NCBI GenBank assembly: GCA_026413625.1
Contig: JAOAKO010000004.1
Location: forward strand, 1 to 52,253
DNA length: 52,253 nt
DNA from: Candidatus Micrarchaeota archaeon
GTDB lineage: Archaea > Micrarchaeota > Micrarchaeia > CABMEP01
Reading direction: 5' to 3'
Shown here in pieces: positions 7,248 through 49,894 of the stretch. Each line of letters opens with the position of its first letter. Within the stretch, counting starts at the first letter, position 1. Made by a program: the position numbers and the translations under genes. The notes beneath the pieces were generated by a model. It saw only the letters and a list, made by a program, of their open reading frames with translations, was not told the DNA's origin and ran no database searches.

Positions 7248-7344
7248 GCCCCCGTAGTATAACCTGGATAGTACGCGAGCTTGCGGACATCTCGTTTCAT
7301 TTGGCAAAAAGCTTGTAATGCGGGTTCGAATCCCGTCGGGGGCG
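7248..7344 (+). tRNA. tRNA-Arg(GCG) with an intron of about 23 nt at 37/38
   Basis: Acceptor GCCCCCG/CGGGGGC, D arm GTAT..GTAC, anticodon stem CGAGC/GCTTG, loop TTGCGGA (anticodon GCG), T arm GCGGG-TTCGAAT-CCCGT, discriminator G. Confidence 0.8.
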
Positions 7345-47862: not shown

Positions 47863-48378
47863 ATGGGAATTTTGTCAAATATAGATATTAAAAAAGCAAT
47901 CAAAAATAAAGAGATTATAATAGATCCGATGCCGCCAGAGGAGTGCTTCGGGCCGGGTTCAGTTGATATAGCTTTAAGCAATGTATTCTACTTGCCTAAG
48001 AAGAAAAGACCAAAGCAATTAGATGCAGCCTGTGATTCTTTTGAGCTTCTGTATGACAAAACAGAGGCGAACGAGGTAATTCTTAATCCTGGCGATTGTA
48101 TTCTGGCGGTCACCGAAGAGAGGCTGATACTGGCTCCGAATATATGCGGTTGGATCCAGGGCAGAAGCAGATTTGCAAGAATGGGATTGACAGCACATGT
48201 TGCATCGAGCTTTATTCAGCCAGGTTCCCAGAATAGACAAGTCCTAGAAATAGCAAATTTATCAAAAGTTCCGATAAAGATTTCAAAAGGACTAAGATTG
48301 TGCCAGATCATATTTGAAAGAACAGACTCAAAACCAGAGGTTCCATACTCAAAAATAGGAAGGTTTGCTAAGCAATGA
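47863..48378 (+). CDS. dcd: dCTP deaminase/dUTPase-family protein
   Basis: IIIDP....C.GP.SVDI.L and GWIQGRSRFARMGL match the Dcd/Dut trimeric family. The downstream motif is atypical (QPGSQNRQVLEI instead of DPGF.G..TLE). Confidence 0.75.
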   Translation: MGILSNIDIKKAIKNKEIIIDPMPPEECFGPGSVDIALSNVFYLPKKKRPKQLDAACDSFELLYDKTEANEVILNPGDCILAVTEERLILAPNICGWIQGRSRFARMGLTAHVASSFIQPGSQNRQVLEIANLSKVPIKISKGLRLCQIIFERTDSKPEVPYSKIGRFAKQ

Positions 48379-48420
48379 AAAGCAATTACTAATGTTTGCT
48401 GTTAATAAGTGAATGAGAGC

Positions 48421-48605
48421 GCGGCAGTAGTCTAGCCTGGTAGGACTCGAGCTTCCCAGGAAACTCTTTTAAAAAAGAGTTTCATCAGAAGACAGATGAC
48501 GACTCTTTTAGACAAAGAGTTTCGTCATAAAAAGTGATGGAGCTTTCTTTAAAAAGGGAGTTTCGAAAAAAGCTCGCGACCCGGGTTCAAATCCCGGCTG
48601 CCGCA
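48421..48605 (+). tRNA. tRNA-Gly(CCC) interrupted by a 112-nt intron at 37/38
   Basis: Acceptor GCGGCAG/CTGCCGC, D arm GTCT..GGAC, anticodon stem CGAGC (48448-52) / GCTCG (48572-76), loop TTCCCA|..|A (anticodon CCC 48455-57), T arm CCGGG-TTCAAAT-CCCGG, discriminator A. Intron 48459-48570. Confidence 0.8.
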
Positions 48606-48634
48606 TTTTGAAATCTTTTGATTATTTTTCCTGC

Positions 48635-49894
48635 TTATTCATTGAATTCTGTTTTCTTTTTCTTTCTGAATCTCGGAAGAACGAATTTGTATACCAAATA
48701 CAGAAATACAAAGGCGGCTGCGATTAGAATTATCGGATCGGTTGCAGTAACTTTATCATATCCGTACTTAAGCGCATCCTCCTTGCTGAATACGTTGACT
48801 TCCACGCTTTCTTTCTGCTCATAGACATTGCCTATTGCATCCTTGTATACGATCTTTATAGGCAGATTTATTTTCTTATCAGTAGTGTTAATATAAAGTT
48901 CAAATTCAGCGACTTCTGAATCGTCTGAATTTATATCACCAATATAGTATACAGCAGGACTCAGAAGAGTGTATTCCGCGTTTCCATCTGTAAGGAAATA
49001 GACGGTTGTAAACGCAATCTTTGACTCCCCTCTGTTTATTATAGAAATAGGAATAGTACTCTTTGCGTTATTCCTTACTATTGTTGTCTGATCGTGCAGT
49101 GCAAGCAATGCTGGCTCTGTGTTGACATCGAGAGATATTATCGTGCTTTTTGAATAGGATTTTCCTAGCATGTCATAGTAGGTCATGGTGACAGGAATCT
49201 TGTAGGATTTTGCTGTTGCGTCAGCCATGCTCTTTATAGAGAAGCTTACAGCAGTCTTTTTTCCAGCCTCTATCAGAGGAATTCTCTTTTCAGTTGTTTC
49301 GTTAACAGGAACGAAAGGCACATCTTGCCCAGAGAGATCGAGCTTTACAGTTATGTCCTTCAGCGAAGCGCCTGCAATATTCTCTAATTCAAGCGTAACA
49401 TTTCCGATTTGGTTAGGCTTAAATTCGGCAGGAACACTTGAAACCTTGCTTATCATTATCACAGCATCTTGTGATTGAATGTAAATAGGCAATTCAGCTG
49501 TTTCTTCCAGATATCCAGATATCTTACATACTATTTTTAGTTTGTTTGTTCCAGTTACAGCGTTTTCGCTTATTCTAACTTTAAACTTCATTAGTGCAAT
49601 GTCGTTTTTCTTGAAGTTTCCTAGATTATATCTTCCGTCCTCTAAATTGTCAATTGAGAATGGGTATTTTGGATCTAGGTAACAGGTGAGATTAGTTATA
49701 GTGGTTTCAACCGCTGATTGGACCTTCACATACACATCTATGTATCTTCCAGGCTCCGCAGGATACGGATAGTAGTATGCGCCTTCACTTATTTTGACTC
49801 CTGCAATGTTTGCTACATTTGGAGTTATTGGAGCCTGAGCGCCCACAAATAAAATCATTTGCAAAATTAGGAAAGCTACAAGATTTTTGTTCAT
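48635..49894 (-). CDS. secreted, C-terminally anchored beta-rich surface protein (COG1361/S-layer-domain-like)
   Basis: Signal peptide, repeated beta-sandwich-like segments, and a C-terminal TM followed by PRFRKKKK. Lies downstream of an ABC ATPase and FtsX permeases, an arrangement I recall for archaeal COG1361 proteins. Confidence 0.55.
   Translation of the reverse strand: MNKNLVAFLILQMILFVGAQAPITPNVANIAGVKISEGAYYYPYPAEPGRYIDVYVKVQSAVETTITNLTCYLDPKYPFSIDNLEDGRYNLGNFKKNDIALMKFKVRISENAVTGTNKLKIVCKISGYLEETAELPIYIQSQDAVIMISKVSSVPAEFKPNQIGNVTLELENIAGASLKDITVKLDLSGQDVPFVPVNETTEKRIPLIEAGKKTAVSFSIKSMADATAKSYKIPVTMTYYDMLGKSYSKSTIISLDVNTEPALLALHDQTTIVRNNAKSTIPISIINRGESKIAFTTVYFLTDGNAEYTLLSPAVYYIGDINSDDSEVAEFELYINTTDKKINLPIKIVYKDAIGNVYEQKESVEVNVFSKEDALKYGYDKVTATDPIILIAAAFVFLYLVYKFVLPRFRKKKKTEFNE

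Follow-up and report, generated by a model that had tools for sequence, protein, structure and literature searches.

A three-unit hairpin intron in a tRNA-Gly(CCC) gene of a hot-spring Micrarchaeota genome and the variable unit number of its family

Introduction

Introns of archaeal tRNA genes span 11 to 129 nucleotides (nt) with medians of 12 to 25 nt, the exception being the tRNA-Trp introns that bear C/D boxes, whose median length is 65 nt (PMC4090602). In the Thermoproteales, different tRNAs harbor sequence-related introns, which have been read as transposed copies, with no mechanism known for their movement (Fujishima et al. 2010, Mol Biol Evol 27:2233, as relayed in PMC4090602 and PMC3239211). 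In Micrarchaeota, the tRNA genes are heavily interrupted and the epsilon-2 splicing endonuclease cuts strict as well as relaxed bulge-helix-bulge (BHB) motifs (PMC3239211). The locus described here is the tRNA-Gly(CCC) gene found at positions 48421-48605 of a 52,253-nt stretch of DNA (hereafter the window; contig JAOAKO010000004.1 of assembly GCA_026413625.1) from a hot-spring Micrarchaeota (DPANN) genome. The window also encodes an archaeal signal recognition particle RNA. The intron of this gene reaches 112 nt, near the top of the published range, and some relatives exceed that range (136 nt at locus L056; loci outside the window are designated by L numbers). The favored explanation, with a probability of about 0.8, is that of a functional-looking tRNA-Gly(CCC) gene whose BHB intron at position 37/38 has grown to 112 nt through ~40-nt hairpin units belonging to a family devoid of open reading frames (ORFs).

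The tRNA-Gly(CCC) gene and its repeat units

With introns allowed, ARAGORN identifies three interrupted tRNA genes in the window (Gly, Ser, and Arg), among which Gly(ccc) [48421,48605] with intron (38,112), on the forward strand. This gene is missed by ARAGORN with default settings and by Rfam at the gathering threshold. The 5' exon (48421-48458, +), read from the sequence, encompasses the 5' strand of the anticodon stem (48448-48452), U32-U33 (48453-48454), the CCC anticodon (48455-48457), and A37 (48458). The 3' exon (48571-48605, +), assigned from the sequence and ARAGORN, starts with A38 and the 3' strand of the anticodon stem (48572-48576), followed by the T arm, the acceptor strand, and the discriminator A. 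The exons alone assemble a complete cloverleaf, which is also present in the fold of the precursor, and they are identical in L001-L004, L046, L059, L078, and the window. Two intronless alleles, L002 and L005, set the boundaries of the intron (48459-48570, +, position 37/38): in L002, ...TTCCCA is joined straight to AGCTCG, the exact exon join. The initial annotation had described a clean tRNA-Gly interrupted at the canonical 37/38 site, with three related hairpin modules at 48460-48483, 48498-48526, and 48539-48565, and two other interrupted tRNAs in the window with shorter introns. All of its coordinates are recovered, and the lengths of the two shorter introns are 39 nt (Ser) and 23 nt (Arg) according to ARAGORN.

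Repeats of ~40 nt can in principle mislead short-read assemblers, and the same annotation had considered an assembly artefact as a possible objection. The 112-nt insert is genuine. A source-like run, X1, which contains every sequence word of the stretch, was assembled independently by Logan, and a 4,497-nt contig of this assembly displays 0 differences with the window over 48300-48750, at an even depth of 24. Moreover, with an identity of only 71-79%, the units diverge too much to be collapsed or expanded, and two-unit versions of the intron have been assembled independently in at least five other samples. The chance that the insert was created by repeat-driven misassembly is therefore practically negligible.

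The intron is formed by three units. Unit 1 (48459-48497, +), retrieved by the direct-repeat search and called first-type, is composed of a hairpin GAAACTCTTTT-AA-AAAAGAGTTTC (48460-48483) and a spacer ATCAGAAGACAGAT. Unit 2 (48498-48538, +), delineated as an extra copy by an insertion in the alignment and by unit identities, exhibits a hairpin at 48498-48526, whose extended arms cover 48496-48528, followed by the spacer ATAAAAAGTGAT. Unit 3 (48539-48570, +), classified as last-type by unit identities, consists of the hairpin GGAGCTTTCTTT-AAAA-AGGGAGTTTC and a tail, GAAAAA. The repeat search reports three inverted repeats, the hairpins, and three direct copies spaced by 40 and 41 nt, the second and third displaying 79% and 71% identity to the first. 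Tandem Repeats Finder detects no tandem repeat in the intron because the unit copies are too divergent. At the level of the family, a unit is a GAAAC-(Y-rich arm)-loop-(R-rich arm)-GUUUC hairpin followed by AUCA and a short spacer, and the common form comprises two units.

The predicted fold of the pre-tRNA has an energy of -75.2 kcal/mol (z = -6.05 relative to shuffled sequences), and that of the intron by itself -38.8 kcal/mol (z = -5.7). The minimum-energy structure has the shape of a nested rod: the 5' arm of unit 1 (a1) is paired with the 3' arm of unit 3 (a'3) and a'1-AUCA with UGAU-a3, while unit 2 forms its own hairpin. A fold with three local hairpins side by side is ~5.6 kcal/mol less stable than the nested rod. 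In the first-type hairpin, compensatory exchanges between C-G and U-A occur at stem positions 7 and 8, a covariation that points to selection on the structure.

The splicing motif

The canonical archaeal rule was applied, which demands two 3-nt bulges 4 base pairs (bp) apart and a cut after the second nucleotide of each bulge. Under this rule, the precursor forms an hBHBh' motif. Helix h is the anticodon stem (CGAGC/GCUCG, 5/5 pairs). The 5' half of the motif (48453-48459, +) is made of the H strand UUCC (48453-48456) and the bulge C-A|G (48457-48459); the 3' half (48565-48571, +) is made of the H strand GAAA (48565-48568) and the bulge A-A|A (48569-48571). The predicted cleavage sites follow 48458 in the first bulge and 48570 in the second. 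The central helix H comprises the pairs U-A, U-A, C*A, and C-G, hence 3/4, a strict geometry with one mismatch; relatives possess GGGA or GGAA as 3' H strand, resulting in 4/4 pairs. The inner helix h' is formed by GAAACUCUUUU (48460-48470, +), the 5' arm of unit 1, and AAGGGAGUUUC (48554-48564, +), the 3' arm of unit 3. It is 11 bp long, flush with both bulges, and the longest h' of the intron family. The multi-unit members of the family all display 5/5 pairs in h, 4/4 in H (3/4 in the window), and two 3-nt bulges; with the exception of L001 (2 bp), their outermost arms also pair into an h' of 6-11 bp that is flush with the bulges.

This geometry is consistent with an archaeal, protein-spliced BHB intron. 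Upon folding of the pre-tRNA, the 5' arm of the first unit would pair with the 3' arm of the last one and present the 11-bp helix flush on the two 3-nt bulges. As in Archaea generally, the genome is expected to encode EndA and an RtcB ligase. The splicing endonuclease, of the epsilon-2 type in Micrarchaeota, would cut after A37 (48458) and after 48570, and the RtcB-type ligase would join the exons and probably circularize the intron. As all units are palindromes with the same arms, the gain or loss of whole units would never break the outer helix. Since that helix is kept, unequal recombination or slippage between direct repeats would be tolerated, leading to a minisatellite-like series of 0, 32, 72-76, and 112 nt.

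Several observations weigh against this reading. The C34*A mismatch in the central helix is present in the window only and absent from all relatives. The minimum-energy register stacks U32-U33 on the anticodon stem with the A-run and does not leave the 3' bulge open, and in the model the BHB register can be imposed only at a penalty of ~8.6 kcal/mol, part of which is due to an imprecise T-arm constraint. The folding check proposed in the initial annotation comes out in favor of its reading, as the motif forms, with its single mismatch. On the RNA side, no run containing the window locus was found that could support splicing or a circular intron, and one hot-spring metatranscriptome from a related study yielded no contig on a relative's locus, L046.

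The mismatch and the non-BHB register would also be expected of a gene on its way to becoming a pseudogene, in which expansion of the intron and the C*A mismatch impair splicing while another tRNA-Gly reads GGG. The window is indeed alone in the family with 3/4 pairs in its central helix, and a UCC isoacceptor could read GGG by wobble. This scenario is nevertheless very improbable: the exons are identical to those of the relatives, every helix of the cloverleaf is intact, and h' is the longest of the family. In addition, GGG accounts for 14% of the Gly codons in the long ORFs of the window, which indicates that a GGG decoder is in use and that the gene is probably not dispensable. Finally, the Micrarchaeota endonuclease tolerates relaxed motifs (PMC3239211).

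Self-splicing as a group I or group II intron was considered and rejected, as no Rfam core matches at E-values up to 10, no ORF is present, and 112 nt is too short. The longest T run of the intron is 4, and premature archaeal termination is therefore not expected.

Copy number at the same locus in relatives

The neighborhood of the gene is conserved, in the order NDK(-), OB-fold protein, dCTP deaminase, tRNA-Gly, a 420-amino-acid membrane protein(-), and ABC transporter, and all the named relatives fetched are 'Candidatus Micrarchaeia/Micrarchaeota' metagenome-assembled genomes. The tRNA-Gly intron is absent in L002 (a Logan contig) and in the more distant L005, whose dCTP deaminase is 72% identical. 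It measures 32 nt in L003 and L004 (GCA_038886695.1), 72 nt in L046 (JAVZXS01), 74 nt in L059 (JAVZPM01), 75 nt in L078 (JAVZRC01), 76 nt in L001 (a Logan contig, ERR14790940) and L052 (CAZJHL01), and 112 nt in the window. In three further hot-spring runs, the intron length deduced from Logan contigs is ~40, ~69, and ~73 nt. To note, part of the T arm of tRNA-Gly is hidden by 12 consecutive N in the public record of L052 (CAZJHL010000009.1), and the L001 contig of the same lineage reads through them. A step of about one 40-nt unit separates each of the classes of 32, 72-76, and 112 nt from the next, the relatives having 0, 1, or 2 units. An unrelated intron at this site in close relatives would have weakened the idea of internal amplification put forward in the initial annotation; the relatives hold related introns with fewer units, in favor of that idea.

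Pairwise identities separate the first-type from the last-type units. Unit 1 of the window shares 80-83% identity with the first units of L078, of L001, and of the tRNA-Ser intron of L092 (see below). For unit 3, the identity with the second units of L078 and L046 is 73%. Unit 2 is nearest to first-type units (72-74%). In alignment A1, the window intron corresponds to a two-unit intron of the L078/L059 type plus an insertion of 38-39 nt, which falls at unit 2. Judging from these comparisons, only unit 2, a first-type copy, appears to have been added, and unit 3 would be the older, divergent second unit of the widespread two-unit intron.

At the other end of the series, L003 has a sole unit, which shares 91% identity with the second one of L046, and the 32-nt intron is thus the 72-nt intron minus one 40-nt repeat. 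In a tree built from the concatenated nucleotide sequences of the genes for NDK, the OB-fold protein, and dCTP deaminase, L003, L078, L059, and L046 group in one tight clade, with 92-97% nucleotide identity in the flanking genes. This clade holds introns of 32, 72, 74, and 75 nt, which indicates that the change between one and two units is recent. The branch that sets off the intronless L002 has a support of 54% only, and the tree therefore gives no direction, gain or loss, for the intron at the Gly site. To note, a distant Micrarchaeota genome, L040, harbors an intron of the family at the same Gly site.

The spacers carry a further signal. Spacer 1 of the window resembles the spacer of L001, while spacer 2 and unit 3 resemble the spacer and second unit of L161 and L078, a likeness suggestive of unequal exchange between two-unit alleles. 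The locus expands and contracts like a minisatellite, presumably through unequal recombination or slippage. A further point against the favored explanation is that unit 2 is only 73% identical to unit 1 and equally near the first units of other loci (72-74%). Because of this equidistance, duplication in situ, recombination between alleles, and re-insertion of a copy from the family account for unit 2 alike.

The copy-number series also bears on whether such a long intron is retained for its product, namely an excised, probably circular RNA, or its hairpins, acting as a regulatory RNA, a protein-binding platform, or a modification guide. The very strong fold of the isolated intron and the conservation of GAAAC/GUUUC-AUCA across many hosts would fit such a role; moreover, archaeal tRNA introns are known to circularize and one class nests a C/D guide RNA (PMC4090602). 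We nevertheless consider it improbable. Relatives with identical exons have between 0 and 3 units, an intronless allele included, and the alignment reveals no conservation of the loop and spacer sequences. A search of 48300-48750 against Rfam returned only chance-level microRNA and small-RNA matches, with no family near threshold for the intron, and the RNA searches for the locus and for L046 mentioned above bring nothing in favor of a stable product. The protein-binding platform, one of the possibilities raised by the initial annotation, receives no support from a copy number that ranges from 0 to 3 among near relatives. An intron without a function of its own is the most likely case, since C/D boxes, an ORF, and an Rfam match are lacking and copy number is not conserved.

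The more specific candidate of a box C/D guide was rejected: the 112 nt contain neither CTGA (CUGA, D box) nor TGATGA (UGAUGA, C box), and the sole snoRNA match lies on the opposite strand with an E-value of 8.8.

The hairpin unit in other genes

Within the 52-kb window, the core CTCTTTT-N3-8-AAGAGTTT is found only in the introns of tRNA-Gly and tRNA-Ser(GCU), for an expected number of 0.00. The tRNA-Ser(GCU) gene (1047-1172) is on the reverse strand. Its 39-nt intron (1097-1135, -), identified by ARAGORN and the pattern search, contains the core CTCTTTTAAAAAGAGTTT at 1113-1130. The syntenic tRNA-Ser(GCU) of L092 (GCA_038873075.1) has a 37-nt intron, A-GAAACTCTTT-AGG-AAAGAGTTTC-ATCAGAT-GCAG-AA, which is a full first-type unit (GAAAC...GTTTC-ATCAGA) with the start of the spacer. 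The genome of L005 and L093 possesses neither the Ser nor the Gly intron, and the tRNA-Ser(GCU) of L094 harbors an unrelated 15-nt intron. In L094:1380-1400 (-), CAAAATCGG is common to this 15-nt intron, CCAAAATCGGCAGAC, and to the end of the Gly intron of L001 (...GTTTCAAAATCGGAAAA), maybe by chance.

Two arginine tRNAs extend this list. In a metagenome contig, L161, tRNA-Arg(UCG) is interrupted by a 73-nt two-unit intron that is ~80% identical to the Gly intron of L078, and whose tail, GGGG-AG, pairs with the CUUC loop of this tRNA. Using L161 as a probe, a further copy was retrieved in X1, on a 17,835-nt contig where the 5' half of tRNA-Arg(UCU) (…GCAGCCTTCTA) is directly followed by AGAAACTCTTTTAG-AAAAGAGTTTCATCAGAA; a unit 1 probe of X1 matched only the window's contig. 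The Arg(UCU) contig has a depth of 23.9, as compared to 24.1 for the window's own X1 contig, and it is tentatively assigned to the same organism by this equal depth alone. Like introns are thus found in different tRNAs of the lineage, together with relatives devoid of them (L002 and L005 for Gly, L093 for Ser), as described for transposed introns. These comparisons suggest movement or copying of the family from one tRNA gene to another, with a 3' tail matched to the anticodon loop of each host, and they support the proposal of the initial annotation that the intron is, or was, mobile.

The third interrupted tRNA of the window (7248-7344, +) is called Pro(cgg) by ARAGORN with default settings and tRNA-Arg(gcg) when introns are allowed. 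Its canonical intron, ACATCTCGTTTCATTTGGCAAAA, is 23 nt long and bounded by a clean BHB motif (H strands UUGC/GCAA, bulges GG|A and AA|A), and the GTTTCAT that this intron contains is possibly a worn remnant of the GAAAC-unit family.

The search for the unit in metagenomes that the initial annotation had called for uncovers copies in many tRNA introns, in one 16S rRNA gene, and in intergenic repeats. A pattern scan of metagenome contigs, in which 7 stem pairs were imposed, returned at least 123 matches. Of the 123 listed, 100 form hairpins whose stems have 9-13 contiguous pairs, ATCA(A/G)AAA being the usual sequence on their 3' side. About twenty of the matches listed are at tRNA intron positions, as judged by their flanks. 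The hosts at position 37/38 among them are Arg, Glu, Tyr, Ile, Asn, Ala, Ser, and Val, and the other sites among the matches listed are the D-loop (L210, L212, and Bilamarchaeum L067), the T-loop (L201, L203), and the variable arm (L097). Automated re-splicing, in which deletions were scanned around each match and submitted to ARAGORN, is noisy; it returned clean canonical tRNAs for L161 (Arg-TCG, 73 nt), L187 (Arg-TCT, 83 nt), and L200 (Val-TAC, 81 nt) only, the other tRNA contexts resting on the reading of flanks. A two-unit GAAAC hairpin is also inserted in an archaeal 16S rRNA gene (L182:1781-1870, in a small-subunit rRNA spanning 1517-2646), between GGTGAGGTAACG and GCTCACCAA. The 16S match of L182 is also broken between 2646 and 3427.

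Outside RNA genes, other matches listed belong to a composite element that recurs in intergenic regions of DPANN-like contigs, often starting at or just after a stop codon. It is organized as TAAAACAAC, a CCGCC-aGTTGAc-GGCGG hairpin, the GAAAC hairpin, ATCA-AAAA, and a GC-rich hairpin, some copies having extra hairpins. It is found at L100, L117, L123, L124, L131, L145, L157, L168, L174, L185, L186, L189, L192, L195, L197, L206, and L209.

A search of viral sequences yielded mostly conserved coding stretches or chance matches, and real multi-copy hairpins in one uncultivated viral genome (UViG) and one giant-virus metagenome-assembled genome (GVMAG) contig. These giant-virus-labelled contigs (L218 and L229, IMGVR_UViG_3300025141_000017, 239 kb; L240, the GVMAG contig) contain 6-7 copies per 11-15 kb of GAAACTTTTT-NNN-AAAAAGTTTC, flanked by CTTTTTGCT and AGCAAAAAG. 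The viral hairpin appears nearly the same as that of the archaeal introns, for which homology, convergence, or mislabelled contigs may all account.

A further set of the matches listed corresponds to another conserved element, ...GGTCAAGGGCAAGGTC-GAAACTTTTTTGNAAAAAAGTTTCATCA-AAAAACTTTACGCTCGCTTCGCTCGG, shared by contigs from human gut and other metagenomes and found at L101, L102, L112, L115, L116, L127, L135, L143, L166, L188, and L198. In L188, this GGTCAAGGGCAAGGTC element is present in two inverted copies separated by ~1 kb, an arrangement that recalls the termini of a small transposable element.

This distribution raises the alternative that the units are a mobile hairpin repeat acting at the DNA level, similar to miniature inverted-repeat (MITE) or palindrome-associated (PATE) transposable elements mobilized in trans, which would have been inserted independently and would create or colonize BHB introns. 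Most of the matches listed have longer stems than the 7 pairs imposed, and the matches are scattered over many tRNAs, at 37/38 as well as in the D-loop, T-loop, and variable arm, over a 16S rRNA gene, and over intergenic elements. The two-unit forms of L187 and L200 are near-palindromic and alike on both strands, the viral contigs are densely populated with copies, and unit 2 of the window resembles unit 1 no more closely than it does the units of other loci. Independent insertion, by contrast, does not readily explain that the units are arranged head to tail in one orientation with a regular spacing of 40-41 nt, that intron lengths change in whole-unit steps, or that the 32-nt intron of L003 is exactly that of L046 minus one repeat. 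Furthermore, no target-site duplication, transposase, or empty non-intron site has been identified for the repeat, and in the 52-kb window the unit is confined to tRNA introns. On balance, insertion of a DNA-level repeat is a rather unlikely origin for the three-unit intron, and growth by whole units within an existing BHB intron is preferred.

A broader proposal concerns the family as a whole. The ~40-nt GAAAC hairpin could tentatively be viewed as the counterpart, in Archaea, of 'introners': a mobile element, active but non-autonomous, that colonizes or creates BHB sites in DPANN tRNA and rRNA genes and is also found between genes. We consider this possibility less likely than not. If it is true, the Gly locus would be a live snapshot of amplification and would open a route to how ORF-less introns move, be it by reverse splicing with EndA/RtcB or by hairpin-directed DNA transposition.

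Other tRNA-Gly(CCC) introns in DPANN

Introns at position 37/38 of tRNA-Gly(CCC) are often long in DPANN, ranging from 11 to 136 nt (136 nt in L056, 120 nt in L087, and 107 nt in L018). Many of these introns belong to a second family of hairpin introns, present in Micrarchaeota and Iainarchaeota. It is characterized by T(C/G)CGC(T)n-loop-(A)nGCG(G/C)C, then CAAAAA...GGGTG, in introns of up to 136 nt, and is found at position 37/38 of tRNA-Gly in L009, L030, L083, L018, L056, and L087, and in a tRNA-Glu in L210. The Gly intron of L071 (Iainarchaeum) harbors its own two-unit tandem repeat, GAACCCAGAGGGTTCCGATACCCCCAAAAGGG next to GGACCCTAAAGGGTTCCGATACCTTCAAAAGGGG, unrelated to the GAAAC unit, and a T-loop intron of L033 (Aenigmatarchaeota) likewise has its own tandem repeats unrelated to this unit. 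Tandem growth of intron modules therefore seems to be general.

Many DPANN tRNA-Gly(CCC) genes also possess T-loop introns, and in several DPANN tRNA-Gly the sequence 5' of the D-arm is not tRNA-like, implying D-loop introns or split genes. Loci with a T-loop intron or an odd 5' part are L006, L016, L023, L027, L033, L055, L085, L088, and L090, as well as L040, L030, L044, and L083.

Comparison with known systems

Transposed archaeal BHB introns are already known, and the novelty of the present case lies in a defined unit and in a copy-number series at one locus. A literature search found no description of tandem unit expansion in archaeal tRNA introns, of a palindromic unit common to several DPANN tRNA introns, or of a minisatellite-like copy-number series at one orthologous tRNA intron. 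The natural series described here, with identical exons and conserved synteny around introns of 0, 32, 72-76, and 112 nt, bears on how ORF-less archaeal introns arise, spread, and change length. It suggests a simple rule, according to which palindromic units can be gained or lost without breaking the splice motif, as the outermost arms always pair. The alleles with one, two, and three units are also ready substrates for addressing endonuclease tolerance, circularization, and mobility in DPANN.

The closest described systems share part of these features. As they are presented in the sources cited above, the transposed BHB introns of Thermoproteales are ORF-less, protein-spliced, similar across isoacceptors, bounded by BHB motifs, and gained after divergence, all of which applies to the present family. 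Compared with that case as relayed there, the family differs by its occurrence in Micrarchaeota (DPANN), by its defined palindromic GAAAC...GUUUC-AUCA unit, and by a tandem copy number of 0 to 3 among close relatives. ARMAN-2 (Candidatus Micrarchaeum acidiphilum) belongs to the same phylum and also has interrupted tRNA genes; the introns tested there are short (13 and 25 nt), and modular, repeated, or shared-sequence introns are not reported (PMC3239211, PMC3488258, PMC12397907). The euryarchaeal tRNA-Trp intron is, like the Gly intron, unusually long and located at the canonical position, whereas the Gly intron has no C/D boxes and no apparent guide role, its length arising from repeated hairpins (PMC4090602). 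In the population of Caldiarchaeum subterraneum, close genomes differ by the presence of tRNA introns (PMC3293823); the Gly family shares this variability, but it also varies in unit number, and it does so across species-level relatives instead of within one population.

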